NCBI GenBank assembly: GCA_963794325.1
Contig: CAWCDG010000004.1
Location: 1,024,001-1,088,000, forward strand
DNA length: 64,000 bases
Direction: 5' to 3'
Origin: an uncultured delta proteobacterium
GTDB taxonomy: Bacteria; Desulfobacterota; Binatia; Binatales; Binataceae
The position numbers and the translations under genes were made by a program. Position 1 is the stretch's first letter. The number at the start of each line of letters is the position of its first letter. Shown here in pieces: positions 3,672 through 59,320 of the stretch. The notes under the pieces were generated by a model that saw only the letters and a list, made by a program, of their open reading frames with translations, searched no databases and had not been told where the DNA came from.

Positions 3672-3755
3672 CTTCCTAACAGGGACGAAGTCCCGCATCT
3701 TTCTTTTAATACTGGGTGCAGGGGTCACCCCTGCCGCCCGCCGCGCAGGCGATTA
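3672..3755 (+). repeat. Repeat family A copy 1 (core GCAGGGGTCACCCCTGC at 3718-3734)
   Basis: 15 copies in the window; modules GGGACGAAGTCCC + core + GCCCGCCGCGCAGGCGAT. Confidence 0.95.
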
Positions 3756-5018
3756 TTCCGACGCCCTCATCTTCACCGACATCTCCTCCAGCCGCCGCCG
3801 CAAAAATCGCCGCTCCGGCGCGCTGCCCACTCGCGTCAGCGCCGCGCGATACGATTCAGCCGCCTCACTCCATCGTTCCAGCCGCCGCAACAAATCCGCG
3901 CGCGCCGACCACATCAGGTAGTAGTCGCGAAGTTCTCCACTCACCGCGATCGCATCGATTAACTCGAGTCCCGCCGCCGGACCATAGGCCATTGCGACCG
4001 CGACCGCCCGATTCAACTCGATCACTGGCGACGGTCGTATCGCGTTGAGCCGCCGGTAGAGATCCGTAATCGCCCGCCAATCGGTCGCCGCCGCACTTTC
4101 CGCGCGCGAATGAATCGCCGCGATCGCCGACTGAATCGCATACGGCCCCTCCGCATCGGCTTTGATCGCGGCTTCCGAATGACTCAGCCCCTCGGCAATC
4201 TGCGCCCTATCCCAACGCGCGCGGTCCTGCTCTTCGAGCAACACGATTTCGCCGCACTCATCGATTCGCCCATCGCGCCGCGCGTCATGCAGCAGCATCA
4301 TCGCGAGCAATCCCCGCGGCTCCGGCTCATCGGGCATCAGCGCGACCAGTATCCGCGCGAGCCGAATCGCCTCCGCACACAGATCGGTTCGCAGCAGCCG
4401 TTCTCCCGAGCTCGCCGCGTAACCTTCATTGAAGACCAGGTAGATAACCGCCATCACCGCGTCCAGCCGCTCCGCCAGCAGCTCCGCCGACGGCACCTCG
4501 TACGGAATCCGCGCCGCCCGAATCTTGCGCTTGGCGCGCACCAGCCGTTGCGCCATCGTCGCCGGCGCCGTCAGGAACGCGCGCGCGATCTCCTCGGTCG
4601 TCAGCCCGCACAATGTGCGTAGCGACAGCGCGACGCGCGCGTCATCAGCCAGCGCCGGATGACAACACGTGAAGATCAGACGCAGCCGCTCGTCGGGCAG
4701 CGCGCCCGCCCCCTCGATCTCCTCATCGTCGCCGCCGGCCTCAGCCATTCGAATCAATTCCTCGCGGCGATCGTTGAACCGGGTCTGTTTTCGTATTCGA
4801 TCGATCGCCTTATGGCGCGCGACGCCGATAATCCACGCGCGCGGATTATCCGGCAGCCCGTCGCGTTCCCACTGCTCGACCGCGCTCGCGAACCCGTCCT
4901 GCGCCGCTTCTTCCGCGAGATCGAAGTCGCCCAGCACGCGAATGAGCGTGGCAAGAATTCGCCCGAACTCCTCGCGATAGAAACGCTCGATACCGGCGGC
5001 AGTGTTGTCCATCGGCAA
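3753..5018 (-). CDS. ECF sigma factor with C-terminal TPR extension (ECF42-like)
   Basis: [43 protein letters not shown] motifs; adjacent DGPF proteins. Confidence 0.93.
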
Positions 5019-5083
5019 ACCCGAAAAGCGAAATCCGTCCGATGGCAGGCTAACCGCCCGCCGCGCATGCCGCTACCGCTGAC

Positions 5084-5872
5084 TCATTCGTGATAGATCC
5101 ACCAGCATCCCTCGACCGGCCTGACTTCGATCGCATCGCCGTCGCGCTGAGTCAGTTTATTCGCCCACGCGATCGCCTCGCCCATCGACGCGCACGCGAC
5201 CAGGTTGAAGCCGCCCGCGACTTCCTTGGTCTCCGCGAACGGCCCGTCCGTCACCAGCCGCCCGTCGTTTTTCCATCGAATCGTTTTCGCCTGCTTCGAA
5301 ACTTCCAGCCGCGCGCCGACCCACAACCCCGGCTCCTGATCCAACATCGCGCGGCTCGCGACGTATTCTGCTCCGACGCCCTGATGCTGCCGCATGATCC
5401 TTGTCCGCTCGCTCTCCGGGAGGCTCAGCACCGCACGCTCGTCCTCGACCGACGTGAGCATGAAAATCTTCGAGGCCGCCTGTCCGGACGTCTGCGAGAT
5501 CCACCAGAACTCGCGAATCGCCCTGACCTCGATGACGAGACTCTCATGCGCTCCCGGATATTTCGCGTATTCGATCGCTTCTTCGAGCGAATCGAAGTCG
5601 ATTATGTCGAAACCGCCGACGAGCTCCTTGGTTTCCGGAAACGGCCCGTCGATCCGCAGATGCGCGCCGCCACGATTCTTCACGGTGATCGTCTCGCGAC
5701 TGGGGCCAAGCCCGACTGAAACATTTATCAGCCCACTCCTTCCGCTGCGCAGTCGCGCGCGAAGCAGTTCGTCGAGTTTCTGCTGATGGAACCGGATGCG
5801 CCGATTCAATTCGTCCGCGTCGATACTCTCCGAATCTCCGCGAACCTCGCCGCCCGTGATCATGTATTTCAT
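5084..5872 (-). CDS. Tandem two-domain YCII/DGPF protein
   Basis: Two DGPF(P/A)ETKE motifs, each followed by IEVR. Confidence 0.88.
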   Translation of the reverse strand: MKYMITGGEVRGDSESIDADELNRRIRFHQQKLDELLRARLRSGRSGLINVSVGLGPSRETITVKNRGGAHLRIDGPFPETKELVGGFDIIDFDSLEEAIEYAKYPGAHESLVIEVRAIREFWWISQTSGQAASKIFMLTSVEDERAVLSLPESERTRIMRQHQGVGAEYVASRAMLDQEPGLWVGARLEVSKQAKTIRWKNDGRLVTDGPFAETKEVAGGFNLVACASMGEAIAWANKLTQRDGDAIEVRPVEGCWWIYHE

Positions 5873-5970
5873 CGCGCTTCCCCTTGGCAGCTCGCCTACC
5901 TATCCAACAATCCGGATCCCCTTTCCGATCTGGAAGAGGTTACTCCCGACAATCCGGCCCCTCCCCAACA

Positions 5971-6015
5971 ATCCGGTTCCCCTTCCCACTATGGGAAGGG
6001 GTTAGGGGTTAGGTT
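5971..6015 (-). repeat. Repeat family B
   Basis: TCCGGTTCCCCTTCCCACTATGGGAAGGGGTTAGGGGTTAGGTT; degenerate hairpin also at ~5910-5945. Confidence 0.9.
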
Positions 6016-6029
6016 CCTCGGCATCGCGC

Positions 6030-6469: not shown

Positions 6470-6560
6470 TGAGAGCGAAAGGTTGTCCTCAACATTTCGC
6501 GCTTCTCACTTTTCACTGGGTGCAGGGGTCACCCCTGCCGCCCGCCGCGCAGGCGATTAT
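6470..6560 (+). repeat. Repeat family A copy 2
   Basis: Core at 6522-6538; upstream module GAGAGCGAAAGGTTGTCCTCAACATTTCGCG is shared with the copy at 24270. Confidence 0.93.
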
Positions 6561-6564: not shown

Positions 6565-6918
6565 CTACATATTGATCTTCCTGACCGGCCGCACCTCTAT
6601 CGACCCGTGCTTCGCCCCCGGAATCCGCGCCGCAATCGCGATCGCGTCATCGAGATCTTTCGCCTCGACCAGGTAGTATCCGCCGAGCTGCTCCTTGGTC
6701 TCCGCAAACGGCCCGTCCGTCACCACGGTCTTGCCGTCGCGCACCCGAACAGTGGTGGCCGTCGTGCTCTGCTCGAGCGGATTGCCGCCCTTATTCTTGC
6801 CGCTCTTCGTGAGGTCCTGCGTAAAAGCCATGTACCCCTGAAAAATCTGCTGCCCCTCCGCAGCCGTCATTTTCTTCGAATCCGCCTCGCTGCTGTAAAT
6901 CAAAAGCAGGTATTCCAT
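6565..6918 (-). CDS. YCII/DGPF protein
   Basis: MEYLLLIY...TDGPFAETKEQLGGYY...SIEVRP. Confidence 0.93.
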   Translation of the reverse strand: MEYLLLIYSSEADSKKMTAAEGQQIFQGYMAFTQDLTKSGKNKGGNPLEQSTTATTVRVRDGKTVVTDGPFAETKEQLGGYYLVEAKDLDDAIAIAARIPGAKHGSIEVRPVRKINM

Positions 6919-6957
6919 CGATTTCTCCTTTCGCCCATTTTGGGTTATCAATTATTA

Positions 6958-7111: not shown

Positions 7112-7209
7112 GACCCTCAGAGCAAAAGCGCGTCCTCGCGATTTTGCGATTTCTTTCTCTTAATACCGGGTGCAGGGGTCACCCCTGCCGCCCGCCGCGC
7201 AGGCGATTA
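7112..7209 (+). repeat. Repeat family A copy 3
   Basis: Core at 7172-7188. Confidence 0.93.
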
Positions 7210-14622: not shown

Positions 14623-15303
14623 ATGCCCTCAGAACACGTGGTATTCCTATTCGACGTCGATAACACCCTGATCGACAACGATCACATCGTTGCCGACATG
14701 AAGCGCAATCTCGAACGCGACATCGGCAACGAACAGCAACAGCGCTACTGGGACTACTTCGAGGAGCTGCGCACCGAGCTCGGCTACGCGGACTACCTCG
14801 GCGCACTGCAACGCTACCGCGTCAATCATCCGCGCGACTTCGGAATCATCGCAGTCTCCTACTTCCTGATGAACTATCACTTCGCCAACCGCCTCTTCCC
14901 CTGCGCGCTCGATATCATCGAGCAGTACCAGCAATACGGCGAGACCGCGATCCTCTCCGACGGCGACATGATTTTTCAGCCGCTGAAAATCGAACGCTCA
15001 GGCCTGCGCGAAGCGGTCGACGAAAAAGTGATGATCTACATCCACAAGGAACAGGAACTCGACGACGTAAAAGTCCGCTACCCCGCCGACCACTACGTCC
15101 TTATCGACGACAAAGTCCGAATCCTCGACGCAGTAAAAAAAACCTGGGGCGCAAAAGTCACCACCGTCTTCCCCCGCCAGGGCCACTACGCCGCCGACTC
15201 CAAGGAAATCGCAAAGTACATGCCCCCCGACGTTACCGTCGACAGAATCGACCAACTCCGCGACTACGATCTAACGAAACTCCGCGCCGCAACGAAGGGA
15301 TAA
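14623..15303 (+). CDS. HAD-superfamily hydrolase
   Basis: FDVDNTL motif I, LSDGD, LIDDK motif IV. Confidence 0.9.
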   Translation: MPSEHVVFLFDVDNTLIDNDHIVADMKRNLERDIGNEQQQRYWDYFEELRTELGYADYLGALQRYRVNHPRDFGIIAVSYFLMNYHFANRLFPCALDIIEQYQQYGETAILSDGDMIFQPLKIERSGLREAVDEKVMIYIHKEQELDDVKVRYPADHYVLIDDKVRILDAVKKTWGAKVTTVFPRQGHYAADSKEIAKYMPPDVTVDRIDQLRDYDLTKLRAATKG

Positions 15304-15333
15304 GCTCTCGACCGCAAGAGCGAGCGACGCTCC

Positions 15334-15571
15334 ATCCTAACCTCCCCTTGTCCGAGGGGAGGTCGGCGAAAGCCGCGAAGCGGTGTCGCCGGGTGAGGTG
15401 CAACGCGCGACATCCCACCAACCCCGACTCGTTTAATCTCAATCTCAGAAACACGAATTCGCCGCTCGACAGCAGTACAACGGACATCGTTGTGACGGCC
15501 AGCGTTGCACCCCTCCCGTCGCACTCCTTCGGCGCGCGCCGACCTCCCCTCGGACAAGGGGAGGTTAGGAT
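15334..15571 (+). mobile_element. Family C MITE/REPIN-like element, 238 bp with ~35-bp terminal inverted repeats
   Basis: ATCCTAACCTCCCCTTGTCCGAGGGGAGGTCGGCG...CGCCGACCTCCCCTCGGACAAGGGGAGGTTAGGAT; homologs at 16903 and 51992. Confidence 0.85.
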
Positions 15572-15693
15572 CGCTTCGCTCTAGAATCACACAAAAAGTG
15601 AACAGGCCAGGTGTTGTGACGTCGCCCGAGAGCCTAACCCCTTCCTGAGCGAAGGGAACCGGACGAGTAGAAAACCCTCTTCCCAGAAATAAA

Positions 15694-15790
15694 CTTCTAA
15701 AGGGACAAGTCCCGCATCTTCTTTTTATCACTGGGTGCAGGGGTCACCCCTGCCGCGGAAGCGTGAAACCCGCGAAGGGTTTCACATTAA
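15694..15790 (+). repeat. Repeat family A copy 4
   Basis: Core at 15737-15753 plus GTGAAACCC-N5-GGGTTTCAC module. Confidence 0.93.
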
Positions 15791-15817
15791 ATAAAGTGAT
15801 CTCCCCTTCCCCCTCTC

Positions 15818-16735
15818 CTACGCGCGCATCGACGCTCGCGTATTCCCCAACAACATCTCCGCGACCGCCGTCAGATCATTGTCATCGTAATAATCGATTT
15901 CGATCCTTCCTGGACTCCGCCCTCGACGCCTGAAAATTCTGACCTTGCGTTTGAGCGCGCGCTGCAAGCCCTCGGCCAGCGCATTCAGATTGGCGTCGCC
16001 GCCGCCGCCGGATCGCGACGATGCGTTTTTCGATCCACGGGGACGTCCCACCGTCGCCATTTCCTCGGCACCGCGCGACGAGATTCCAACCGCCGCAATT
16101 CGCCGCGCCGCCGATATCTGCTTCTCGGCCGATTGTATCGAGAGCAGCGGCCGCGCCTGTCCCGCCCTGAGCTCCCCCTTCGCGATCATATTCAGAATCG
16201 GCTGCGGCAGTTCCAGCAAGCGCAGCGTATTGCCGACGTACGGCCGGCTCTTGCCAACCCGCGATGCGATCTCGTCATGGGTCAGCCCGAAATGATCGAC
16301 CAGCCGGAAAAACGCGAGCCCTTCTTCGACTGCGTTCAAGTCCTCTCGCACGATATTTTCGACCAGCGACATTTCCAGCGCCGCGCGGTCGTCGAGTTCG
16401 CGCACCACCACCGGAACTGTCTCGAGCCCCGCCGCACGCGCCGCGCGCAGCCGCCGCTCACCGGCGATCAGCTCGTAGAGCGGACCGTCGGTGTCGGGCG
16501 CGTCGATTCGGCGCACGATCAGCGGCTCGATTATTCCCTGGCTCTGAATCGCGCGGGTAAGTTCCGCGAGCCGTTCCTTGTCGAAATTTATCCGCGGCTG
16601 AAACGCACCGGCCGTGATACTCCCGACTGGCGCCATCTTGAATTGCGAGTCGAGGTTATCTGCCGCGCCTGTTTCACTCGCCGGCGCATTCCCGATCAGC
16701 GCATCAAGCCCGCGCCCCAATGGTTTCCGCATCAT
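15818..16735 (-). CDS. parB: Chromosome partitioning protein ParB
   Basis: LGRGLDALI, QPR, IAGERRLRAA, ENIVREDL, HTH. Confidence 0.97.
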   Translation of the reverse strand: MMRKPLGRGLDALIGNAPASETGAADNLDSQFKMAPVGSITAGAFQPRINFDKERLAELTRAIQSQGIIEPLIVRRIDAPDTDGPLYELIAGERRLRAARAAGLETVPVVVRELDDRAALEMSLVENIVREDLNAVEEGLAFFRLVDHFGLTHDEIASRVGKSRPYVGNTLRLLELPQPILNMIAKGELRAGQARPLLSIQSAEKQISAARRIAAVGISSRGAEEMATVGRPRGSKNASSRSGGGGDANLNALAEGLQRALKRKVRIFRRRGRSPGRIEIDYYDDNDLTAVAEMLLGNTRASMRA

Positions 16736-16777
16736 CGTGATAGTCCTCGTGCGATTTAGATCGTGCTTGAACCAAGC

Positions 16778-16888
16778 AACCTAACCCCTAACCCCTTCAC
16801 GAGCGGGAAGGGGAACCGGATTTGAGACAACTATTGCGCCTCGTCCTATCCCCCTCACCCCCTTTCCCGCGGGAAAAGGGGAACAGAA
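16778..16888 (+). repeat. Repeat B plus related B' (CCTATCCCCCTCACCCCCTTTCCCGCGGGAAARGGGGAAC)
   Basis: The same B+B' composite recurs at 35641-35747. Confidence 0.85.
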
Positions 16889-16902
16889 AGGATCGTGATC
16901 CG

Positions 16903-17138
16903 ATCCTAACCTCCCCTTGTCCGAGGGGAGGTCGGCGAAAGCCGCGCAGCGGTGTCGCCGGGAGAGGTGCAACGTGCGACAGCCCACCAACTTCGACTCG
17001 TTTAATCTGAATGCAGAGACACAAGTTCGCTGCTCGACAGCAGCACAACGAGCGATGGTGCTACGGCCAGCGCTGCACCTCTCCCGTCGCACTCCTTCGG
17101 CGCGCGCCGACCTCCCCTCGGACAAGGGGAGGTCAGAT
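16903..17138 (+). mobile_element. Family C MITE/REPIN-like element, copy 2
   Basis: Same TIRs as copy 1 and colinear interior. Confidence 0.85.
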
Positions 17139-17156
17139 CCCTCCGCCCCCGACGAA

Positions 17157-17265
17157 CTTCTAACAGGGGCGCAGCCCCGCATCTTCTCTTTGATACCGGG
17201 TGCAGGGGTCACCCCTGCCCAGGGAGGTGTGGAACCCACGGCGGGTTCCACTACAATAAAGCTCC
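17157..17265 (+). repeat. Repeat family A copy 5 (overlaps the parA stop)
   Basis: Core at 17202-17218; variant hairpins GGGGCGCAGCCCC and GTGGAACCC..GGGTTCCAC. Confidence 0.92.
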
Positions 17266-18057
17266 TAACGTTCCACTCTGCCCCTCACCACGCGCGATAA
17301 TCTCCGCCGCCAATGCGCGATAGCCCTCCGCTCCCGCCGACTTCGGCTCGTATTCGCAGACAGACAGTCCATGACTCGGGCTTTCCGACAGCCGCACGCT
17401 GCGCGGAATCACGCTCTGAAAAACTTTTTCCGGAAAATGTTTTCTCACTTCCTCGGAGATTTCGTGACTGAGGCGATTTCGCGTATCGAACATCGTGAGC
17501 ACCAGGCCTTCGAGCTCGAGTCCCGGCCTCAGCGCCGCCTTGACCTTGTTGATCGTGCCGAGCAGCGCGCTCAGACCTTCGAGCGCGTAGTACTCGCATT
17601 GCATCGGCACCAGCACCGAGTCCGCCGCCACCAGCGCATTGAGGGTGAGAATCCCGAGCGACGGTGGCGTGTCAATTAGAACATAGTTATATTCCACTCT
17701 CGATGGCTCCAGGAGCGCTCGTAAGCGACGCTCACGACCCTCCATCGTCACCAGCTCGATCTCGGCGCCCACCAGGTCGTCGCCCGCCGGCGCGAGCGAC
17801 AAGGTCGGCCGCACCTGCCTCAAGATTTCCGCGATCGGCAGCCCACCGACCAACGCCTGGTAAATAGTCTTGCCCGTGCGCCGCGATTCACTGACGTCTT
17901 CGGGCGTGGCGATACCGGAAGTGGCGTTGCCCTGGGGGTCCAGGTCGACCAGCAAGACCTTGAGTCCCGTGTCGGCCAACGCGAAGGCCAGATTGATAGC
18001 GGTGGTAGTCTTACCGACGCCGCCTTTCTGATTAGCTATTGCGATTACCCGCCCCAC
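17251..18057 (-). CDS. parA: ParA/Soj ATPase
   Basis: ANQKGGVGKTT deviant Walker A, DLDPQGNA, DTPPSLG, QCEYYALEG; start taken at GTG 18057 (ORF extends to 18093). Confidence 0.97.
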   Translation of the reverse strand: MGRVIAIANQKGGVGKTTTAINLAFALADTGLKVLLVDLDPQGNATSGIATPEDVSESRRTGKTIYQALVGGLPIAEILRQVRPTLSLAPAGDDLVGAEIELVTMEGRERRLRALLEPSRVEYNYVLIDTPPSLGILTLNALVAADSVLVPMQCEYYALEGLSALLGTINKVKAALRPGLELEGLVLTMFDTRNRLSHEISEEVRKHFPEKVFQSVIPRSVRLSESPSHGLSVCEYEPKSAGAEGYRALAAEIIARGEGQSGTLGALL

Positions 18058-18255: not shown

Positions 18256-18304
18256 TTCCCCCGAAGCCCGAGTGGCATTGTGGCATGCAAATCCAGGAAG
18301 GAAT

Positions 18305-18351: not shown

Positions 18352-18460
18352 GAACCTGAAAGCAAAAGGGCGTCCTCGCCATTTTGCGATTAGGTACTAA
18401 GGTGCAGGGCTTAGCCCTGCCGAAGGAAGCGTGAAACCCGCGAAGGGTTTCACATTTAAT
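18352..18460 (+). repeat. Repeat family A copy 6 (variant core GCAGGGCTTAGCCCTGC)
   Basis: Core at 18404-18420 has a compensatory G-C to C-G change. Confidence 0.9.
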
Positions 18461-18483
18461 CGAGTGATCTACCCTTCCCTCGA

Positions 18484-21477: not shown

Positions 21478-22867
21478 CTACTTCCCGATGCAGAAATCGC
21501 GGAAGATCGCGTCGAGCACGTCCTCGCCGCTGACCTCGCCAGTGATGGATCCGAGCGCCGATGCGGCCGCCATTATATCGACCGCGACAATCTCCGGCGG
21601 CATCGATGATAACGCGGCGCCGCGCGCGTTCTTGAGCGCTTCCAGAGCCATCGCAAGCGCATCACGATGCCGCTCGCGCGAGATCGCGATTTGATTGTTG
21701 GTGGTTGGTGCGGATGGATCGACAAGCGCCGCGATCGCCTTCGTCAGTTCGGCGCGCAGGATTGCAGCCTCGCCGATATCGATCGCGGAGAACGGGAGCA
21801 TCGGCAGTGACAGGCCGTGCTCTCGCAGATCACCAGCAGAGATCGCATGCGGGCAGGTCGCGCTTGTTCAGGATCGCGAGGCCGGGACGATTCGACGTCA
21901 GGCGAATCACTTCCCGATCCGCCGCTTCGAGCGGGCGCGACGAATCGAACATCGCAATCAGCAGGTCCGCGTCGCGCGCCGAGCGTAACGTGCGCTCGAT
22001 TCCAATCCGCTCGACAACGTCGGCCGATTCGCGCACCCCCGCGGTATCGTTGAGCACCAGCGCGTACGGCCCAAGCTGGACTGAGTCTTCGATCACGTCG
22101 CGAGTAGTGCCGGCGATCGCCGTGACGATCGCGCGGTCGGCGCCGAGCAACAGATTCAGCAGGCTCGACTTGCCGGCGTTGGGCTTGCCGACGATCGTCG
22201 CGCGGACCCCTTCGCGCATCAGGAGGCCGCGCGCGAAGCTGTCGTGCAGCATCGCAACGTCGGCAATCAGCCGCTCGATCTCGGCGGCAACCTCGCGCCG
22301 CGACGGCATCCGGATGTCCTCGTCGGAGAAATCGATCTCGACTTCGAGATGCGCGCGAATCGCAATCACCTGGGCGCGCAACTCCGCGACCCGCGCCGAA
22401 AGTGCGCCCGAGAGCTGCGACAACGCGTTCGTGAGCGCGGACTCGCTGCGCGCTCCGACGATATCGGCAACCGCCTCAGCCTCCGCCAGATCCATCCGGC
22501 CGTTCAAAAATGCGCGGCGAGTGAACTCGCCCGGCTCGGCGATTCGCGCGCCCGCATCGACGGCGATCGCAACGATGCGCCGGACGACGAACGGCCCGCC
22601 ATGGCATTGGATTTCGGCAACGTCCTCGCCAGTGAGGCTCGCCGGATGCGGCATCACGACCGCCAGCGCGCGATCGATGCGCGCGCCAGTGGCGGGATCG
22701 ACAACGTCGCCCAGTCGCATCACGCGCGGCGTGATCTCGGTAATGCGCGCTGGGTGAAACATCGCCTCGAGGATTTCGACTGCGCGCGGACCGGATAGGC
22801 GCACAATTGCAACGGCGCCGATTCCCGGCGCTGTGGCAGGAGCTACGATCGTGTCGGCGGCGTACAT
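21478..22867 (-). CDS. mnmE: tRNA modification GTPase MnmE, with a 1-nt frameshift near 21848
   Basis: DTIVAPAT, TGEDVAEIQCHGG, GKPNAGKSS, DTAG, NKRD in one frame; C-terminal IFRDFCIGK in the next frame. Confidence 0.93.
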
Positions 22868-22886
22868 AGGTAGAGGAACGAATTGT

Positions 22887-22987
22887 ATGTGAAACCCTTC
22901 GCGGGTTTCACGCTTCCGCGGCAGGGGTGACCCCTGCACCCAGTATTAATCGCAAAATGGCGAGGACGCCATTTTGCTCTCAGGTTC
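22887..22987 (-). repeat. Repeat family A copy 7
   Basis: Core at 22921-22937; forms a ~100-bp imperfect inverted pair with 23424-23533. Confidence 0.93.
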
Positions 22988-23423: not shown

Positions 23424-23533
23424 AGAGAGCGAAAAGGTCGTCCTCGCCGTTTTGCGATTAGTACTTTTCACTGGGTGCAGGGGTCACCCCTGCCGAAGGA
23501 AGCGTGAAACCCACGGAGGGTTTCACGTTTAAT
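23424..23533 (+). repeat. Repeat family A copy 8
   Basis: Core at 23477-23493. Confidence 0.93.
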
Positions 23534-23707
23534 CAGTTCTCCCTCTGGCGGGCGGGGTGCTTGCTCAATTGCGTGCGGTATGGTTCGATTGCGTGTTCGG
23601 AGTCTATCCAGAATACCACTACCTGATTTTGCCGGACTAAAAGATACCGACCTACTAACCGACCTCGCCGGTCGGAATTCAAAACCGAGTGAAGCTGGCC
23701 CCGAGCA

Positions 23708-24251: not shown

Positions 24252-24269
24252 TGAGAGAGAACCTATCAA

Positions 24270-24358
24270 GATCGCCTGCGCGGCGAGCGGCAGGGGTGAC
24301 CCCTGCACCCAGTGAGAATCGCGAAATGTTGAGGACAACCTTTCGCTCTCAGGGTCGG
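24270..24358 (-). repeat. Repeat family A copy 9
   Basis: Core at 24290-24306; same module combination as copy 2. Confidence 0.93.
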
Positions 24359-27812: not shown

Positions 27813-27825
27813 GGCGGGGAACGAA

Positions 27826-27936
27826 GGAACTTAATTGTAAGCGGAACCCACCGTGGGTTCCGCACCTCCCTCGGCAGGGGTGACCCCTGCACCCAGTATT
27901 AAAAGAAAGATGCGGGACTTCGTCCCTGTTAGAAGT
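27826..27936 (-). repeat. Repeat family A copy 10
   Basis: Core at 27874-27890; GCGGAACCC..GGGTTCCGC variant. Confidence 0.93.
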
Positions 27937-39873: not shown

Positions 39874-39900
39874 ATGGGGAAGCCCTTCAAGTGGGCGTCG

Positions 39901-39960
39901 AGGAACCTTAATTGTAGTGAAACCCACGACGGGTTTGCAGGGGTGACCCCTGCACCCAGT
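39901..39960 (-). repeat. Repeat family A copy 11 (internally deleted)
   Basis: Core at 39937-39953. Confidence 0.9.
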
Positions 39961-40025
39961 GAAAAAGACGCGCGCACATTCGAGTATCAAGTTCGCGCGC
40001 ACCGCGCTCGCCACGCCCCAAAACA

Positions 40026-40117
40026 CTTCTAACAGGGACGAAGTCCCGCATCTTTCTTAATACTGGGTGCAGGGGTCACCCCTGCCGAGGGCGCGGGGCG
40101 AGGAGCCCCGCATCTTC
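40026..40117 (+). repeat. Repeat family A copy 12
   Basis: Core at 40069-40085; inverted partner of copy 11. Confidence 0.92.
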
Positions 40118-45631: not shown

Positions 45632-47965
45632 ATGCGTGAACGCGATCTGAAAGCACTCGAATTCGACAAGGTGATTCACCTCGTCATCGAGCTTTGCGCC
45701 TCCGAGCCGGGGCGCGAGGCGACCGCCGAGTTGCGCCCGTCGATCGAGGTGCCCGAAGTTCGCGAGCGGCTCACCGCGACTGCCGAGATGGTCGAGCTGC
45801 GATCGCATGCCGGATCGATCCCGATAAGCGAATTCACCGATCAGCGGCCGTACCTGCTCGTGGCGGCGCGCGCGGGTGCGATACTCGGCGGCGAAGCGCT
45901 GGTGAAGGTGCGCGATTTTATCGTGGGATCGCGGCACGTCAGCGGATTTCTACGATCGCGCGTCGAGCGCTTCCCGCATGTCGCAGCTCTGGTAAATAAC
46001 CTGCTCGCGCCGAAAGAGCTCGCCGACGCGATGCTCGGTGCGCTGGCCGACGACGGCACGATACTGGACGACGCGAGCCCCGAGCTGAAGCGGCTGCGCA
46101 GCCGGCTGCGCGATGAGCGCGCGGAACTCGAGGCGCGCCTTTTGCGATCGCTCAACGCGTCGGGGATGGAATCGTTCGTCTCGGATTACATCGTGACGAT
46201 TCGCAATCGCCGGTTCGTGCTGCCGATGAAGCTGAACTATTCGGAGCGCTTCGAGGGAATCGTGCAGGACCGCAGCGTGTCGGGCGAGACGCTGTTCGTC
46301 GAGCCGATGTGGGCGGTCGAGCTGAACAACCGTCTGATGATGCTCGAGCGGGAAGCGGAGGCGGAAGAAACACGAATCCTCGCGGCGCTGACCGCGATGA
46401 TCGGCGGCTACACACCTGAGTTGCAGCTGACGTTCGACGCGATGGTGGCGATCGACGCGCTCAACGCACGCGCGCTTTTCGCCGAGCGCTTTCGATGCGT
46501 CGAGCCGCAGCTGGTCGATGAGGGAATCGATTTTATTGGCGCGCGGCATCCGCTGCTGATGACCAGCGGCCGCGACGTGATTCCGATCGACGTGAAGATT
46601 GGCGCCGGTCAGCGCGGTATCGTAATCTCGGGTCCGAACACCGGCGGAAAAACCGTCGCGCTCAAGACGGTCGGGCTGCTGTCGCTGATGGCGCAGGCCG
46701 GGATGCTGATTCCCGCGCTCGCGGGCAGCAAGGCGACGGTGTTTCGCAGTGTGTTCGCCGATATCGGCGACGAGCAGTCTATCGAATCGAACCTGTCGAG
46801 TTTTTCGGGGCATATCGCGAACCTGTCCGAGATAATCAGATCGCTGGTCGAGCCGGCGCTGGTGATTCTCGACGAGCCGGGCGCCGGCACCGACCCGGCC
46901 GAGGGCGCGGCGCTTGCGATCGGATTGATGAACCACCTGGGGACGCGGCGCTGCATGCTGGCGATCGCGACGCATTCGACCGCAGTGAAACTGCACGCAT
47001 ACTCGCAAGCCAGGTTCGAGGCCGCGGCGGTGGACTTCGACGCCGAGCATCTCGCGCCGTTGTACCGCCTGAAGCCGCATACGATTGGGCAGAGTTACGG
47101 ACTCGCGGTCGCGCGCCGGCTCGGACTCCCCGAGGAAATAATTCGCGCGGCAGAACAATCGATGGGCACCGGAACTGTCGAGCTGACCGACTCACTGAAA
47201 AGGCTCGACGCCGAGCGCGCCAAGCTAAATGCGCAGCTCGAAAAATTGCGGGAGCGCGAACTCAACCTGGCTCAGATCGAGCAGGATGTCCTTCAACGAG
47301 CTGAAAAGGCGCGCGAGCGCGTCGAGCTCGAGCGCGGGCGGTTGCGGGCCGAAGTCGCGGAACTGATCGAGGAGCTCCGACGCGACGGTGCGAAGCTGAT
47401 GGATGATCTGAGATCCAGGGAAAAATCGCGCCCCGATTTGAAGGGATTCATCACGAAGTCAGCGGCGAAACTCGAGAGTCTTGCGCCCACTGATGCCGCG
47501 ACCGAATCGAACGCGCCGCTGAAGGTCGGCGATAGCGTCGAGGTCGGCGACATTCGGGGCGAGCTGATCGTGCTCGAGGCTAGCCGCGCCGTGATCAGCC
47601 GCGGCGGCTTGAGAATAGAAGTCTCGCCCGAGCGGTTGCGCAGGTCGGCGGTTGCGCCGCCCGAACTTCGGCCCGCGCGGACCAAAGAGCCGGCCGTCAC
47701 CTTCAGCGTCGAGACTGGCGAGGGTAACGAGTTGAATCTGATCGGGATGCGCACGACGGACGCACTGCGCAAGCTCGAGGAATTTCTCGACACCGCATTC
47801 CTGACCAATCGCGCGGAGGTGCGGATCGTTCATGGGATTGGATCGGGCGCGCTGCGCAAGGCTGTCGCGGAATACCTGGGTAGCTCGCCGTATTGCGCGT
47901 CGTTTCGCGGCGCAGAACCGCATCATGGAGGTGCGGGCGCGACGATCGTGCAGATGAATTTGTGA
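45632..47965 (+). CDS. mutS2: Endonuclease MutS2
   Basis: LEFDK start, SGPNTGGKT, DIGDEQSI, DEPGAGTDP, C-terminal Smr HGIGSG. Confidence 0.96.
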   Translation: MRERDLKALEFDKVIHLVIELCASEPGREATAELRPSIEVPEVRERLTATAEMVELRSHAGSIPISEFTDQRPYLLVAARAGAILGGEALVKVRDFIVGSRHVSGFLRSRVERFPHVAALVNNLLAPKELADAMLGALADDGTILDDASPELKRLRSRLRDERAELEARLLRSLNASGMESFVSDYIVTIRNRRFVLPMKLNYSERFEGIVQDRSVSGETLFVEPMWAVELNNRLMMLEREAEAEETRILAALTAMIGGYTPELQLTFDAMVAIDALNARALFAERFRCVEPQLVDEGIDFIGARHPLLMTSGRDVIPIDVKIGAGQRGIVISGPNTGGKTVALKTVGLLSLMAQAGMLIPALAGSKATVFRSVFADIGDEQSIESNLSSFSGHIANLSEIIRSLVEPALVILDEPGAGTDPAEGAALAIGLMNHLGTRRCMLAIATHSTAVKLHAYSQARFEAAAVDFDAEHLAPLYRLKPHTIGQSYGLAVARRLGLPEEIIRAAEQSMGTGTVELTDSLKRLDAERAKLNAQLEKLRERELNLAQIEQDVLQRAEKARERVELERGRLRAEVAELIEELRRDGAKLMDDLRSREKSRPDLKGFITKSAAKLESLAPTDAATESNAPLKVGDSVEVGDIRGELIVLEASRAVISRGGLRIEVSPERLRRSAVAPPELRPARTKEPAVTFSVETGEGNELNLIGMRTTDALRKLEEFLDTAFLTNRAEVRIVHGIGSGALRKAVAEYLGSSPYCASFRGAEPHHGGAGATIVQMNL

Positions 47966-47976
47966 GAGAGCCATCT

Positions 47977-48083
47977 AATTTAATGCGGAACCCGCGGTGG
48001 GTTCCGCACCTCCTTCGGCAGGGGTGACCCCTGCACCCAGTATCAGGAAAGAAAAAGATGCGGGACTTCGTCCCTGTTAGAAC
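47977..48083 (-). repeat. Repeat family A copy 13
   Basis: Core at 48018-48034. Confidence 0.93.
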
Positions 48084-48147
48084 TTTGTCGGGGAAGAGGT
48101 GGATTCCGCGGCAAGCTGAAATGCTCGCGCACTGAGGGGACGCTAAG

Positions 48148-48232
48148 AACCTAACCCCTAACCCCTTCCCGAGCGGGAAGGGGAACCGGATTGTTTGGAG
48201 TAACCCCTTCCTGCGCGGGAAGGGGGACCGGA
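48148..48232 (+). repeat. Repeat family B with a tandem second hairpin
   Basis: AACCTAACCCCTAACCCCTTCCCGAGCGGGAAGGGGAACCGGA plus a second hairpin. Confidence 0.9.
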
Positions 48233-50961: not shown

Positions 50962-51039
50962 CAGGATCGCGCGTCGGTTTGAACCGCGTTGCGTCCTCGG
51001 CGTAGTCTGTCATCCATCCCGATCCTGCGCACCATCCTG

Positions 51040-51852
51040 ATGGCGAAAAAGCGAAAGCATGGCCGCACCGAGAACGAGCCGGAAGGCGAACGAAAGGCGA
51101 CGCCGGCGCCTGCAAAAGTCTTTTCGTCACCATTTAAGGATCTGAAAAAGATGCTCGCCGAGCGCGAGCGGACTGTGCCGAAGGCGCCACCAGTAATCAA
51201 GCCCAAGGTCGCGGCTCCTGTCGCCGCGCCGGCCGTTGAAAAATCTGCGGCGCCTGCGGAAGAACTACTCGATGACGAATCGTTTCTGCGGCAAGCGCTT
51301 CAAGGAGTGCGGCCGCTGCATCGCAACGGTATCGCGCGATCACGAATACCGCTCGACCCGCCGACCACGCACACGATCGTCGACGAGGACGCCGAGGTGA
51401 TCGCTCTGCTGTCTGACCTCGTGTCGGGACTGGCGCCGTTCGATATCACCGAGTCCGACGAATACGTCGAGGGCTACCGCAAGGGCATCGACCCGCGGCT
51501 TGTGTCGCAACTCCGACGCGGCGAGTTCGCCGTGCAGGCGCATTTCGACATGCACGGGATGATCCAGGGTGCGGCGAAGGAAGCGCTGAAAGAGTTCATC
51601 ATCGCGTCGGTGCGCAAGGGACTGCGTGCCGTGCTGGTCGTTCATGGACGCGGACTGCGCTCGCCCGGTGGGCATTCGGTGCTCAAGCATGCGAGCGCAG
51701 GATGGCTCTCGCATGGCGCGATTGGCGGTCACGTACTGGCGTTCACAACCGCGCGCCCGGCGGACGGCGGCGCGGGAGCGACGTACGTATTGCTGAAGCG
51801 CGAGAAGAGTCGAGCACCGTTCGATATTCTGCAAGGGGCGAAGCGGCGGTAG
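51040..51852 (+). CDS. Smr/MutS2 domain protein
   Basis: LRRGEF....DMHG, VVHGRG.RS, GGAGATYVLL. Confidence 0.92.
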   Translation: MAKKRKHGRTENEPEGERKATPAPAKVFSSPFKDLKKMLAERERTVPKAPPVIKPKVAAPVAAPAVEKSAAPAEELLDDESFLRQALQGVRPLHRNGIARSRIPLDPPTTHTIVDEDAEVIALLSDLVSGLAPFDITESDEYVEGYRKGIDPRLVSQLRRGEFAVQAHFDMHGMIQGAAKEALKEFIIASVRKGLRAVLVVHGRGLRSPGGHSVLKHASAGWLSHGAIGGHVLAFTTARPADGGAGATYVLLKREKSRAPFDILQGAKRR

Positions 51853-51869
51853 CGGGGGGAAGGGGAAAG

Positions 51870-51976
51870 AACTTGATTGTAGTGAAACCCCTCCTGGGTT
51901 TCACGCTTCCCTGGGCAGGGTTAAACCCTGCACCTTAGAATTAAGAAAGATGCGGGACTTCGTCCCTGTTAGAAGT
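51870..51976 (-). repeat. Repeat family A copy 14 (variant core GCAGGGTTAAACCCTGC)
   Basis: Core at 51915-51931 has a compensatory G-C to T-A change. Confidence 0.9.
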
Positions 51977-57815: not shown

Positions 57816-57819
57816 ATCG

Positions 57820-58020
57820 ATTGTGGGGGAGGTTGTGGACGAGGGGAGCATAAGGTTGGAGCTATCGACAGGGCCGGTGCGCGCACGGCCGGCCCTGTCG
57901 GTCAGCCGCTTTTTCGCCGACAGCTTTTCAGCCGGCGATCGCCGTTCAATTTCAGGCGTTTGCAATCTCCATCAACAAATCCACAACTCCTACTATTACT
58001 GCTATTCTTTTTTAGAGATC
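57820..58020. other. Probable oriC unwinding region (degenerate DnaA boxes, DnaA-trios, T-run)
   Basis: AAATCCACA (57977-57985), then CTACTATTACTGCTATTC (57990-58007) and TTTTTT, resembling the Bacillus subtilis basal unwinding system; more degenerate boxes at 57822-57870. Confidence 0.8.
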
Positions 58021-58055
58021 TAAGATCCAGAAATAGGAAGACGGGCTAACAACTG

Positions 58056-59198
58056 ATGGGACTCGCAATCGAGCGCGCTTCGCTGCTTAGCGGTTTGGGA
58101 CTGGTCCAGGGCATCGTGGAACGGCGCACGACGGTTCCGATCCTCGGCCATGTTCTGCTTGAACCAAACAACAATGCGCTGATGCTCAGCGCCACCGATC
58201 TCGAAGTCGGAATCCGCACCCAAGTCGCGTGCAGCGGCAAGGAAAAAAGCTTGACGCTCAATGCGCGCAAGCTCTTCGAAATCGTGCGCGAGACCGAAGG
58301 CGATGAAGTCGCGCTGACGACGCTCGACGGCGATTGGGTCGAGCTGAAATGCGGCCGCGCAAAATTCAAAATGATGGGCCTCGATCCGCGCAGCTTCCCG
58401 GCAATGCCAAGTCAGAGCACCGGGAAGGATGCTGGAGCCGCTAAGAAACAACTCAAGGCCGAACTGGCGATTCCCGCGTCGGTGCTGGCGCAGATGATCG
58501 ACAAAACGATCTTCGCGGTCAGTCCCGATGAAGCGCGATACAATCTGAGCGGCGTGTACGTCGAGTCCAACGCCCCCGGGGCAGTCCGGATGGTCGCGAC
58601 CGATGGCCATCGCCTGGCGATGATCGAGCGCGAAGTGCCGGGATTCACGATGCCGAACGGCGCGATCATTCCACGAAAAGGACTCGCTGAACTGCGCAAA
58701 ATCCTGGACGTCGAAGGTGAAGCTGAAGTGCGGCTCAGCCTCGAAGGTCAGCTCGCATACCTGAAGCGCGGCTCGACCGAAGTCTCGATGCGGCTGGTCG
58801 AGGGCGAATTCCCCGACTACCGCGGCGTAATCCCCAAACAGTCGAAGTACAAAATCACGGTCAAGCGCGATCTGCTGTTCGCGGCAATCAAGCGCGCAGC
58901 GATTTTCTCGAGCGAGCGGTATCACGGCGTTAAATTCGCGATGTCAGCCGGGACGCTGACGGTTTCATCGACCAGTCCCGAAACCGGAGAAGCAAGCGAG
59001 TCGCTCGACGTCGATTTCAAGAGCGAAGAATTCGCGATCGGATTCAACGCATCATACGTGCAACAGGCGCTGGGAGTGATTCCGCAAGGCGCGGATTCGA
59101 CGGTGGAGCTCGGACTCAGCGACGACGTGAGCCCCGGCGTAATCAGGACTGAAACGGATCAGCAGTACACGTACGTCGTCATGCCGATGCGTCTGTAG
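58056..59198 (+). CDS. dnaN: DNA polymerase III beta clamp
   Basis: ATDLE, VATDGHRL, GEFPDY, GFNASY, VVMPMRL. Confidence 0.98.
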   Translation: MGLAIERASLLSGLGLVQGIVERRTTVPILGHVLLEPNNNALMLSATDLEVGIRTQVACSGKEKSLTLNARKLFEIVRETEGDEVALTTLDGDWVELKCGRAKFKMMGLDPRSFPAMPSQSTGKDAGAAKKQLKAELAIPASVLAQMIDKTIFAVSPDEARYNLSGVYVESNAPGAVRMVATDGHRLAMIEREVPGFTMPNGAIIPRKGLAELRKILDVEGEAEVRLSLEGQLAYLKRGSTEVSMRLVEGEFPDYRGVIPKQSKYKITVKRDLLFAAIKRAAIFSSERYHGVKFAMSAGTLTVSSTSPETGEASESLDVDFKSEEFAIGFNASYVQQALGVIPQGADSTVELGLSDDVSPGVIRTETDQQYTYVVMPMRL

Positions 59199-59220
59199 GG
59201 CGGGGACGGCGAATTCACTT

Positions 59221-59320
59221 TATTGAATGTGAAACCCTTCGCGGGTTTCACGCTTCCGCGGCAGGGGTGACCCCTGCACCCAGTGTTAAGAGAAGATGCG
59301 GGGCTTCGCCCCTGTTAGAA
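59221..59320 (-). repeat. Repeat family A copy 15
   Basis: Core at 59261-59277; the first ~57 nt match copy 7. Confidence 0.93.

Follow-up and report, generated by a model that had tools for sequence, protein, structure and literature searches.

Few parts of bacterial genomes are as poorly understood as dispersed hairpin repeats, and what is known of them comes mostly from a few Proteobacteria with RAYT-driven REPs. Hairpins are also found at the ends of IS200/IS605-family elements, where the hairpin is recognised, nucleotides at its foot pair with a nearby site and insertion proceeds without target duplication. Among the REPs, those of the CGTC type are described as having no dedicated transposase, stems of 8-9 bp that start with A/T pairs and loops of 4-5 nt (Di Nocera et al. 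2013, PMC3733652).

The element considered here, family A, is an abundant, undescribed three-hairpin gene-end repeat of the uncultured soil bacterium Candidatus Binatus. It was noticed in a stretch of 64,000 nt (the window), where the original prediction read it as either a non-autonomous element mobile as single-stranded DNA or a structured RNA module. Both of these readings remain live options. On balance, we lean towards family A being a mosaic palindromic repeat, non-autonomous and spread across the Candidatus Binatus lineage, akin in kind to the REP/BIME elements of Proteobacteria such as E. coli and to the BOX elements of pneumococci.

Build and copy number

The composite consists of a left hairpin module (L1 or L2), a core hairpin and a right module (R1, R2 or R3), and spans 80-125 nt. 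The 17-nt core GCAGGGGTCACCCCTGC occurs 13 times in the window, six times on the + strand and seven on the - strand (0.00 expected from 100 shuffles), and all 13 positions predicted for it were found. Two further copies, at 18404 (GGGC-TTA-GCCC) and 51915 (GGGT-TAA-ACCC on the + strand), carry compensated cores whose stems are still paired, as had been claimed (Table 1). A 16th match, at 18068, was rejected as a copy because its arms do not pair, its flanks are unrelated and it falls within parA. Genome-wide, about 189 cores were counted in 4.45 Mb, where chance predicts 0. Their geometry, a perfect 7-bp stem with a 3-nt loop, is near-invariant, nearly every copy carries (CT)GGGT as its 5' flank and C as its 3' flank, and the core subfamilies are discrete, with coordinated changes.

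Table 1. Copies of family A in the window, with their composition and surroundings
Position	Strand	Composition	Surroundings
3676..3755	+	L1-core-R2	R2 end (..GATTA) touches stop of convergent sigma-70-like gene 3753-5018(-)
6473..6559	+	L2-core-R2	R side toward 3' end of YCII gene 6565-6951(-)
7120..7209	+	L2-core-R2	Upstream of + strand gene
15695..15810	+	L1-core-R1	R1 tail stops 7 nt from parB stop (15818-16735, -)
17158..17276	+	L1(GGGGC variant)-core-R1(GTGGAACCC variant)	R side at parA stop (17251-18093, -)
18360..18478	+	L2-core(GGGC-TTA-GCCC subfamily)-R1	R side at rsmG stop (18484-19260, -)
22864..22979	-	L2-core-R1	Directly upstream of mnmE start codon
23427..23551	+	L2-core-R1	Just upstream of conserved rpmH promoter region
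24269..24348	-	L2-core-R2	Immediately after rnpA stop
27816..27934	-	L1-core-R1(GCGGAACCC)	Immediately after TAG stop; hairpin + T-run terminator further downstream
39890..39973	-	Copy with R1 truncated at 5' arm	Left member of inverted doublet, L sides inward
40027..40111	+	L1-core-R3	Right member of doublet with 39890..39973; cores 132 nt apart
47960..48082	-	L1-core-R1	Begins ~5 nt past TGA stop
51857..51974	-	L1-core(GGGT-TTA-ACCC subfamily)-R1	After gene 50989-51852(+)
59204..59320	-	L1(GGGGC)-core-R1	After TAG of gene 58056-59198(+)

The combinatorial mixing of modules that had been proposed is real: six L+R combinations were counted genome-wide (L1+R1 43, L2+R1 48, L1+R2 5, L2+R2 12, L1+R3 6 and L2+R3 1), the remainder being unclassified. 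A core accompanies the module at a fixed side and strand for 53 of 56 L1, 67 of 81 L2, 24 of 33 R2, 12 of 14 R3 and 128 of about 145 R1 modules. All the flanking hairpin variants listed beforehand are present, both GGGAC/GTCCC and GGGGC/GCCCC as well as GTGAAACCC, GTGGAACCC and GCGGAACCC, each with its complement. Arms of the GTGGAACCC or GCGGAACCC type occur in about one in three R1 copies. With L1 or L2, the core and R1, R2 or R3, family A shows the mosaic of palindromic units and limited partner motifs that characterises BIMEs. The Binatus genome further holds 14 inverted doublets (28 of 189 copies), with their L sides inward, between convergent genes.

On the L side of the composite, further hairpin families adjoin. 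The R1 tail and an adjacent family-C hairpin have a common 11-nt purine-rich terminus. A genuine 235-bp TIR-MITE, whose build is unlike that of the modular hairpins, sits beside the element.

Fold and sequence conservation

Folding of either strand predicts three hairpins (z -2.1 to -4.2), and 99.8% of stem cells are paired. Compensatory changes were found at 4 of 16 stem pairs, with 75 double-changed cells and none of 500 shuffles as high, counts that are inflated by subfamilies of common descent. A linker-loop contact of 2-3 bp between the foot bases of the core and the R1 loop gives a complementarity of 2.24 against 2.03 +/- 0.03, again with none of 500 shuffles as high (unique types). The element is constrained as a single-strand fold made up of the three hairpins and this contact. 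Wobble counts, G:T versus A:C, were 4 versus 10 in the element's own genome and about 4 versus 2 in a hand count of alignment A1, and single out neither strand as the one that folds.

The original prediction is supported in so far as it described a non-coding, multi-copy, modular element under single-strand fold constraint. The covariation exceeds all the shuffles, but it is confined to a small number of discrete subfamily variants related by descent. The statement that structure rather than sequence is conserved is overstated: consensus identity is 80-99% in most element columns, and of 90 copies anchored by L and R1 modules alone, 86 have an intact core. Further, the consensus is identical between species with neighbouring genes only 80-86% identical.

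Genomic placement

Called genes contain 11 of the 189 cores, 9 of which reflect ORF calls with extended starts; the remaining 178 lie outside. Past the R module, the next 300 nt are open coding in 133 of 189 copies, of which 98 meet the 3' end of a gene and 35 a gene leaving, with 56 copies having no coding neighbour; on the L side the adjoining 300 nt are open coding in 31 of 189 copies only. The median core-to-stop distance is 56 nt. Neighbouring genes, as called by a crude gene caller made for this analysis, are convergent at 57 copies, tandem at 66+34 and divergent at 32, so the repeat has the position downstream of ORFs, between tandem and convergent genes, by which REPs are recognised. 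In one case the R side is turned toward the 3' end of tRNA-Leu, and likewise in genome G015. Protein genes, tRNA genes and phage late genes can all provide the transcription-unit end on which the R side borders, and the L side looks onto further non-coding DNA. This polarity is not absolute (98 versus 35). Copies are also located inside conserved operons of the origin region, rsmG-parA-parB and rnpA-yidD. The R1 of the copy at 22864..22979 is the sole promoter-like match of its region.

Only at 27874 is the position in a 3' UTR demonstrated. A reading of the element as an intrinsic terminator was rejected: by stricter criteria, a canonical terminator follows the element within 450 nt in mRNA sense in only 7 of the 98 gene-end copies, and between 14500 and 29000 the single family module called terminator-like is the L1 of the 27874 copy, on the strand opposite the upstream gene.

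Distribution and turnover

An exact 20-mer was found in 20 of 24 congeneric species of Candidatus Binatus. The covariance model matched five of five genus members sampled and none of six other genera of the family, with one marginal match elsewhere (101 genomes). Beyond the genus, Polymorphobacter (Alphaproteobacteria) carries the same tagged hairpin about 220-240 times, again against stop codons and without R1; among the places listed, inverted doublets are frequent there at spacings of 47 and 80 nt.

At orthologous sites, copies have been gained, lost and truncated, and modules replaced. The original prediction had proposed a comparison of empty sites in relatives, and it yielded both presence/absence and module swaps. 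At parB, core and R1 are present in 19 of 19 other species examined, with L1, L2 or a third module on the left. At rsmG, other species have the GGGG-TCA core type, a switch of subfamily. The rpmH copy (23427..23551) is absent in G007 and 5'-truncated in G009 and G061, while the rnpA site (24269..24348) is empty in G049 and G060, where the rnpA-yidD gap measures 25 and 8 nt. There is no copy at 47960..48082 in G060 and G007, the entire spacer being different; at 59204..59320, G060 has core and R1 with L2, and G049 and G009 are without a copy. The 27874 site is filled in the window, G007 and G061 and empty in G060, which reads TAG/tcctattcc. The inserted unit starts with GGGGAAC and ends with GTTCCCC, and no target duplication is seen at this one clean filled/empty pair.

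Family A has also entered Mu-like prophages, whose operons hold copies between portal, capsid and protease genes. There is no recent burst of copies: a single one of 17,766 copy pairs reaches 90% identity over 149 nt (ungapped, one contig-end duplicate left out), which gives no sign of active transposition, and the uniformity of the core could be due to conversion or selection.

Relation to known repeat classes

Rfam gave no family match, either at gathering score over the whole window or at E<=1 on 15300-18600 (three copies). The element is not unrecognisable, however: its anatomy, placement and mosaic build fit the REP/BIME/BOX class, and 189 copies in the genome make it a short extragenic palindrome in high copy number, as REPs are. 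It fails the defining tests of RAYT-associated REPs. Neither a GTAG nor a CGTC tag was found at the hairpin end, the flanks being GGGT and C instead, and none of 19 RAYT-like loci in 47 genus genomes contains the core within 1.5 kb. RAYT (PF01797) was found in only 13 of the 47 Binatus genomes, 34 having no match, and in none of three genomes reached via non-Binatus loci (two Polymorphobacter, one labelled Stellaceae). No mobilising enzyme was found, nor any recurrent ORF between element pairs, and the copies show no replichore-scale strand bias.

The host genome's two RAYT-like genes are flanked by other repeat families. The window may be free of transposases, as originally stated, on a Pfam scan of 12 of its ORFs; the two IS200-like genes of the genome are located outside it. 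A different REP family of the host (CACAGGC..GCCTGTG) does flank a RAYT.

Possible explanations

If family A is a mosaic repeat of the REP/BIME/BOX kind, its copies would arise and be overwritten slowly, via a single-stranded intermediate or conversion between copies, through a trans-acting agent that we infer to be other than RAYT. Because the element is polar, transcription is predicted to place it at the beginning of the 3' UTR. Stacked hairpins at that position would block 3'-to-5' exonucleases and punctuate operons, and such a role would explain the genus-wide persistence of some copies (parB, mnmE).

A purely selfish relic of a single-strand DNA transposon is another reading, which we regard as unlikely. 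A nuclease of the HUH type, or another one acting on single strands, would then recognise the core with its GGGT tag, the foot/R1-loop pairing would be a guide-to-cleavage-site contact, and gene ends would be the places where insertions are tolerated. Contacts of this kind are known from the ends of IS608 and the IS200 family. Presence/absence without target duplication at 27874, entry into Mu-like prophages, inverted doublets (those listed for Polymorphobacter included), discrete subfamilies with coordinated changes and hairpin-foot/loop covariation all suit such a relic, and the patchy cross-phylum distribution suggests a transferred driver. One concern is that no Y1 transposase lies within 1.5 kb of copies (0/19 RAYT-like loci), that RAYT is confined to 13/47 Binatus genomes and 0/3 reached from outside, and that replichore-scale strand bias is lacking and near-identical copies scarce. 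Further, core and R1 are retained at parB in all 19 species examined and polarity follows transcription units, a tRNA included, which fits a relic poorly. A further reading is a cis-acting RNA device evolved by the host, which might stabilise the 3' UTR, signal processing or termination, or bind a conserved RNA-binding protein, with selection at each locus, not mobility, keeping the core invariant. The intact core of independently anchored copies, the consensus unchanged across species, the R side set against stop codons in both Binatus and Polymorphobacter and the covarying, pseudoknot-like contact are consistent with a device, and with canonical terminators scarce another 3'-end signal could be needed. 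We nevertheless think it quite improbable: no Rfam family matches, 35 copies point at gene starts and 56 are without a coding neighbour, many orthologous sites in sister species are empty with no visible substitute, and left modules are exchanged freely. The composite also appears abruptly in one genus, which invasion fits better than an ancient function.

Two further readings fare worse. A double-stranded DNA site for a chromosome-organising protein, in which the R1 arms would be swapped halves of a parS-like 16-mer and the copies concentrated around the parAB origin region, is very improbable. It draws on four parS-like sites beside parA and rsmG (18129, 18240, 19235 and 19301), matching what we take to be the parS consensus, whose halves are the R1 arms, and on the 29 of 106 C4 copies that fall in the 200-kb bin with the cumulative GC-skew minimum and the parAB-rnpA-yidC cluster; in addition, the syntenic 75 kb contain 7 cores in G007 and 10 in G009, versus 69 and 119 exact 20-mers genome-wide. 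However, the resemblance was noticed post hoc, and R1 was rejected as a parS site: its half-sites are in swapped order, separated by a loop and wrongly spaced for the palindrome, with the genuine 16-mers elsewhere. In addition, the third of R1 copies with variant arms depart from parS half-sites, R2 copies, R3 copies and the Polymorphobacter family are all without R1, and stem covariation and the loop contact favour a single-strand fold. A classical TIR-bounded MITE from a DDE insertion sequence is scarcely credible. The GGGGAAC start and GTTCCCC end of the 27874 unit and the terminus common to the R1 tail and the family-C hairpin recall such an element, but its inverted ends measure just 7 nt and are not a general feature, no target-site duplication is seen at the single clean filled/empty pair, neither an autonomous partner nor a recurrent ORF was found and the modular hairpin build differs from that of the adjacent genuine TIR-MITE.

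A bolder extension of the REP-type reading, which we hold to be doubtful, is that the GGGT-tagged 7-bp/3-nt hairpin represents a third REP-type superfamily beside the GTAG- and CGTC-tagged ones. It would be the portable recognition site of an enzyme acting on single-stranded nucleic acid, or of an RNA-binding factor, that was transferred horizontally between Binatota and Polymorphobacter. The covarying hairpin-foot/loop contact would then belong to recognition. In transcript sense the unit is a 7-bp helix with ACCC after it, which may recall an acceptor-stem microhelix and its 3' tail.

Family A takes up a large share of the intergenic DNA in an abundant uncultured soil genus, and the same central hairpin occurs in an unrelated, culturable alphaproteobacterium. 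With its strict grammar, gene-end placement, lack of RAYT and culturable second host, it makes two questions bench-testable, namely what moves or maintains RAYT-less REP-type repeats and what effect they have on neighbouring mRNA. As Polymorphobacter arshaanensis is cultured, any such partner of the hairpin might be obtained from it directly. For annotation of Binatus genomes the modules should be masked, since they extend ORF calls and mimic cassette boundaries.

Comparison with known systems

The ends of IS200/IS605 elements differ from the Binatus element in that no TnpA was found for it and the replication strand bias expected of that family was not seen. The REPs and BIMEs of Enterobacteria and Pseudomonas, as described in PMC3733652, resemble it in several respects: a short GC-rich hairpin in hundreds of extragenic copies; a location mostly downstream of ORFs, between tandem and convergent genes; and head-to-head dimers, subfamilies with compensated stems and mosaics with other motifs. 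The CGTC REPs of that account also share with it the lack of a dedicated transposase. Unlike the tagged REP superfamilies described there, the Binatus core has neither GTAG nor CGTC and combines a perfect 7-bp stem with a 3-nt loop; unlike REPs in general as presented there, it always lies inside a three-module unit of 80-125 nt, with no flanking RAYT.

REPINs with their RAYTs, as portrayed by Bertels and Rainey (2011, PMC3116915, PMC3337134), are alike in their inverted doublets and persistence across a lineage. By comparison with that portrayal, the Binatus doublets are a minority (28/189) and have no single-copy RAYT partner, and the family, being common to two phyla, is not only vertically inherited. 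The BOX elements of Streptococcus pneumoniae, in the description of Croucher et al. (2011, PMC3049150), are likewise modular, with alternative sub-units and extensive secondary structure; they too have no transposase of their own, turn over slowly and are likely co-transcribed with their neighbours, and are confined to one genus with a related set elsewhere. Where BOX, so described, repeats its boxB units, family A places an invariant central hairpin between alternative hairpins, and a relationship in sequence between the two is not expected.

Anatomy and conservation of family A

A complete family A unit, with a core hairpin between a left and a right module, measures 80-125 nt and varies in the spacer between left module and core, the loops and the tail. 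The 17-nt core GCAGGGGTCACCCCTGC had been noted at 13 positions of the window, and all 13 proved exact (6 on the + strand, 7 on the − strand; 0 expected from 100 dinucleotide shuffles), while a looser pattern recovered both compensated variants, at 18404 and 51915. Another match to the pattern, at 18068 inside parA, is unpaired and without the family flanks, and was ruled out as a chance occurrence. In a by-eye alignment of the oriented window copies, the junctions ..CTGGGT 5′ of the core and C 3′ of it are common to every copy. Two other readings of the element were dropped: a short ORF or peptide, since spacer lengths differ by non-multiples of three, and an integron attC site, since copies are dispersed beside housekeeping genes in both orientations.

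The source assembly G000 (4.45 Mb, 60% G+C, 10 contigs), of which the window is C4:1024001-1088000, holds 189 cores with a paired seventh base pair, comprising 164 exact copies, 12 with GGGC/GCCC, 6 with GGGT/ACCC, 6 with GGGG and a TTA or TAA loop, and one shifted. Their left modules are L1 (62), L2 (65) or other (62), and their right modules R1 (128), R2 (24), R3 (12) or other (25). Every combination of left and right module is found genome-wide, as the original observation of combinatorial mixing had it. Of 56 L1 occurrences, 53 have a core to their right in the same orientation, as do 67 of 81 for L2; the right modules stand beside a core in 128 of about 145 (R1), 24 of 33 (R2) and 12 of 14 (R3) cases. 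With side and orientation relative to the core fixed in this way, the modules are not independent repeats.

The accompanying claim that structure rather than sequence is conserved goes too far, because sequence is conserved too: when copies are anchored by the left module and R1 alone, the core between them is intact in 41/44 (L1) and 45/46 (L2), and most columns match the consensus at 80-99%. In ungapped comparison, one of 17,766 copy pairs reaches at least 90% identity over 149 nt, the contig-end duplicate left out. A recent burst of family A was rejected; there are almost no near-identical full-length copies, yet gapped identity to the consensus is high.

Three further arrangements were seen (see table). 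The core variant with a 4-nt loop is missed by the patterns used, so that exact-pattern copy counts are lower bounds. The insertion of about 27 nt, the same at two unrelated loci in two species, splits the 5′ arm of the core and suggests a smaller element aiming at the core hairpin. Finally, the hairpins of locus L179, from a congener without the core, may represent a different ordering of family A modules.

Modules of family A and neighbouring features, with their coordinates
Feature	Location	Sequence or structure	Remark
L1	window copies	..CTAACAGGGAC-GAA-GTCCCGCATCTT..	one of the two main left hairpins
L2	window copies	..GAGCAAAATGGCG-TCCT-CGCCATTTTGC..	one of the two main left hairpins
R1		GTGAAACCC-N5-GGGTTTCAC	right module; 9-bp hairpin and A/T-rich tail
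R2		CGCCCGCCGCGCAGGCGATTA	right module
R3		GCGGGGC-N5-GCCCCGC	right module
Core variant	congener G061 (loci L039-L042), e.g. sites syntenic with window 17202 and 27874	GCAGGGG-CTGG-CCCCTGC	4-nt loop
Insertion in core	G000:C4 about 490446 (− strand); L008 (congener G052, parB site)	AGCCTGTCCTGAGC..GCCGAAGGAG	about 27 nt
Rearranged hairpins	L179 (congener G010, C35:123979-127001), about 1400-1530		L2-like hairpin between two R1-like hairpins of inverted order
Second hairpin family	L001 (G000:C4:285443-288718), 1100-1930; window 23001-23067	GAATCACAGGCTAAAGCCTGTGCCAC	in L001, borders both sides of a 177-aa IS200-like (RAYT-type) gene
Third family	window 23390-23425, 24440-24500, 48110-48200; many others	AACCTAACCCCTAACCCCTTCCC-N4-GGGAAGGGGAACCGGAT	opens with a telomere-like CCCTAA-type stretch
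Separate repeat, about 235 bp	window 15334-15572, 16903-17146; at least five more in the genome, many across the genus	..CCTAACCTCCCCTTGTCCGAGGGGAGG..	terminal inverted repeats of roughly 36 bp, themselves hairpins
parS-like palindromes	window 18129-18144, 18240-18255, 19235-19250, 19301-19316; eight more elsewhere in G000	16 bp	window sites beside parA and rsmG
Replication-origin region	C4 1.00-1.20 Mb		mnmE-mnmG-rsmG-parA-parB and rpmH-rnpA-yidD-yidC clusters

Predicted fold and covariation

Both strands of family A are predicted to fold into three hairpins (z-scores −2.1 to −4.2). Among 133 distinct core+R1 sequences, drawn from the window and 31 other contigs or genomes, 99.8% of stem cells are paired and double changes occur in 4 of 16 pairs (75 cells), although all covariation counts are inflated by subfamilies with common ancestry. 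The covarying pairs are G-C/C-G/U-A at the top of the core and G-C/A-U/U-A, U-A/C-G and A-U/G-C in R1. The values were reached by 0/500 shuffles, and slid controls drop to 31-57% paired. Twelve core positions are fixed by the selection pattern, and the four varying pairs are free of it. A count of G:T against A:C, tried as a test of the folding strand, found too few non-Watson-Crick pairs to tell the strands apart.

Further, the first two or three bases 3′ of the core covary with the R1 loop (CG with ..CG.., CC with ..GG.., CGC with GCG..). The mean longest complementary run between this foot and the loop is 2.24 versus 2.03 ± 0.03; on 73 unique types it is 2.05 versus 1.84 ± 0.06, with 0/500 shuffles as high. 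The pattern supports a small putative pseudoknot.

Placement at the ends of transcription units

According to Pfam, the window is an origin-proximal gene cluster with parB, parA, rsmG, mnmE, rnpA, yidD and yidC, with family A copies in nearly every gap between them. By our own crude gene caller, 178/189 cores are outside genes, and in 123/189 the R-side gene is convergent with the element; the median distance from core to stop is 56 nt, so that the stop falls at the end of the R module. The polarity is independent of the caller: the 300 nt past the R module are open and coding-like in 133/189 copies (98 reading frames end at the element, 35 leave it), the matching figure for the L side being 31/189. 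For the 35 leaving frames, the copy precedes the start codon by 20-80 nt and in many cases is followed immediately by a promoter-like −35 box. Fourteen inverted doublets, their cores separated by 104-220 nt, are oriented with the L sides inward, so that the two R sides point at a pair of convergent genes, one each.

The R side of one copy abuts the 3′ end of a tRNA-Leu gene, likewise in the congener G015, which indicates that placement follows the ends of transcription units in general rather than stop codons. Roughly half of the R2 copies at gene ends provide the TAA stop, as its complement, through their conserved ..GATTA end. A look for public RNA runs covering window 15300-24900 returned none. 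A canonical terminator lies beyond the element in 7/98 gene-end copies, a figure that is uninformative because such terminators are scarce in this genome overall. The third family (see table) is commonly found on the L side of family A, and the longest yidD ORF reads through it; its right arm resembles the complement of the R1 tail.

Turnover at orthologous sites and copies in phage

Turnover was followed in about 75 kb from each of five species, syntenic with the parB region of the window. The parB 3′ end was sampled separately, in the 19 best-matching loci of 46 other genomes (in at least 8 further genomes the BLAST match ended short of the element). R1 and the core directly follow the stop in 19/19 of these loci, with 15 cores exact, 2 compensated variants, 1 with a single mismatch and 1 split by the 27-nt insertion. 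Across species, the left module at this site alternates between L1, L2 and, in three, a third hairpin, and the R1 subtype differs as well.

Other sites differ in occupancy. Among the species compared, site 24290 carries a copy in the window only. In G060 and G007 the spacer at site 48018 is different throughout and lacks the element. The window copy at site 59261, with L1, has a counterpart with L2 in G060 and none in G049 or G009; at site 23477, G007 has no copy, and those of G009 and G061 are shortened at the 5′ end. At site 27874, G007 and G061 carry a copy as the window does; G060 reads TAG directly followed by tcctattcc.., and relative to it the inserted unit of about 165 nt starts with GGGGAAC and ends with GTTCCCC without a target duplication. 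A hairpin and T-run terminator follows further downstream at this site, placing the element within the 3′ UTR. At the rsmG site the window has the GGGC-TTA-GCCC subfamily with its own junction and other species the GGGG-TCA type; such a concerted change of several bases implies that a paralogue replaced or converted the copy.

Three IMG/VR contigs carry Binatus-type copies. Pfam searches of the ORFs of two of them found Mu-like phage genes (Gp27 and portal on one; sheath, Gp36/37, major head and protease on the other) with family A copies between them, so family A can enter newly acquired DNA. The copy in locus L173 has its R side after the stop of the upstream ORF.

Distribution and a relative in Polymorphobacter

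The exact 20-mer (core with flanking bases) occurs in 20/24 species sampled from the genus, Candidatus Binatus, with between 4 and about 120 copies in each, and in none of 16 genomes from the class's other genera. The congeners G010, G015 and G017 are poor in the element. Masked bases account for at least one negative score: the copy in G015 is broken by NN. A covariance model of core+R1 matched 5/5 sampled genus members (one weakly), 0/6 other genera of the family and, in the remainder of 101 class genomes, gave 1 marginal match (E 7e-4). These genus and class counts take in genomes G019 and G024, both flagged as unpublished. A full copy had no match in PLSDB plasmids or GenBank phage collections, and a literature search on Binatota/Binatus repeats and palindromes, by title and abstract, found no published description.

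A genome-collection scan matched at least 107 stretches. The 80 listed include Binatus, six loci of Polymorphobacter (Alphaproteobacteria), one copy alone in a Stellaceae MAG and, in a MAG labelled only 'proteobacterium', a locus with the full Binatus architecture. The cultured P. arshaanensis DJ1R-1 has 244 sites of GCAGG-SS-TSA-SS-CCTGC, 216 of them with the same GGT prefix and C suffix, and an uncultured congener has 219; the pattern occurs in 0/200 other genomes of the order. The middle two pairs are again compensated (CC/GG, GG/CC, CG/CG, GC/GC), and inverted doublets with a spacing of 47 or 80 nt are frequent. On the 3′ side, the flank ..CCGCCGGAGGCnCTTA is similar to R2 and, in two examples (L134, L115), ends at the complement of a TAA stop, so that the same side as in Binatus faces the gene end. 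That two narrow and unrelated lineages have 18 specified bases in common speaks for common descent of the hairpin through horizontal transfer, or else for a partner that recognises it in both.

Transposases and co-resident repeats

The source genome has two IS200-like (RAYT-type) genes, one flanked on both sides by another hairpin repeat (..CACAGGCTAAAGCCTGTG..) and the other by a GC-rich palindrome; family A lies beside neither. PF01797 was matched in 13/47 genus genomes only, and the core is present in 0/19 RAYT loci of these genomes, each taken with 1.5 kb of flank on both sides. Searches with PF01797 found no match in the element-rich, complete or near-complete G007 (one contig, 69 exact 20-mers) and G009, nor in the Polymorphobacter genomes searched. 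A RAYT as the driver of family A is thus rejected for the genomes searched (the source genome, 47 genus genomes and Polymorphobacter). A gene carried between element pairs was rejected as well, with no recurrent protein in 56 close pairs.

The second hairpin family and its 177-aa gene form a textbook REP-RAYT pair in the same genome as family A, which is RAYT-less, and copies of this family often adjoin the L2 module. The repeat of about 235 bp, whose two window copies are 91% identical and whose ORFs have no Pfam match, looks like a true TIR-MITE from its sequence.

Origin region

The cumulative GC-skew minimum of the 1.97-Mb contig C4 falls in the window, and 29/106 of its family A copies are in the 200-kb bin around the origin. 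In the origin region, family A reaches some three to four times its usual density; G007 and G009 are likewise enriched in their syntenic regions. A replication-strand bias was rejected, because orientation does not switch at the skew minimum (left 18+/27−, right 10+/22−); local GC skew had hinted that the forward strand is lagging (131 versus 58 copies), which is contradicted at the replichore scale. Judged by the parS consensus, the four window palindromes are parS-like; each half of these 16-mers equals one arm of the R1 hairpin, in swapped order.

Interpretation and comparison with known systems

Family A is probably a slowly turning-over, non-autonomous, single-strand-structured repeat. 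Its polarity would make the element the start of the upstream gene's 3′ UTR, where its most plausible role, by analogy, would be that of an exonuclease barrier and of operon punctuation. Both roles are established for E. coli REPs.

Other explanations were considered. Purely selfish transposition of single-stranded DNA by a nuclease is unlikely, and a device evolved by the host and acting as RNA is somewhat less likely again; Rfam gave no match to family A. It is very improbable that the element is a DNA site related to ParB, and slightly more improbable still that it is a DDE MITE; family A fails the tests of TIR-MITEs.

The slowly turning-over, non-autonomous repeat can be compared with known intergenic families. 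RAYT-type REPs have a defining GTAG/CGTC tag (PMC3733652) and a RAYT, whereas family A is without either. From its anatomy, copy number, extragenic and gene-end siting, head-to-head dimers, compensated subfamilies and mosaic build, we place family A in the REP/BIME/BOX class.
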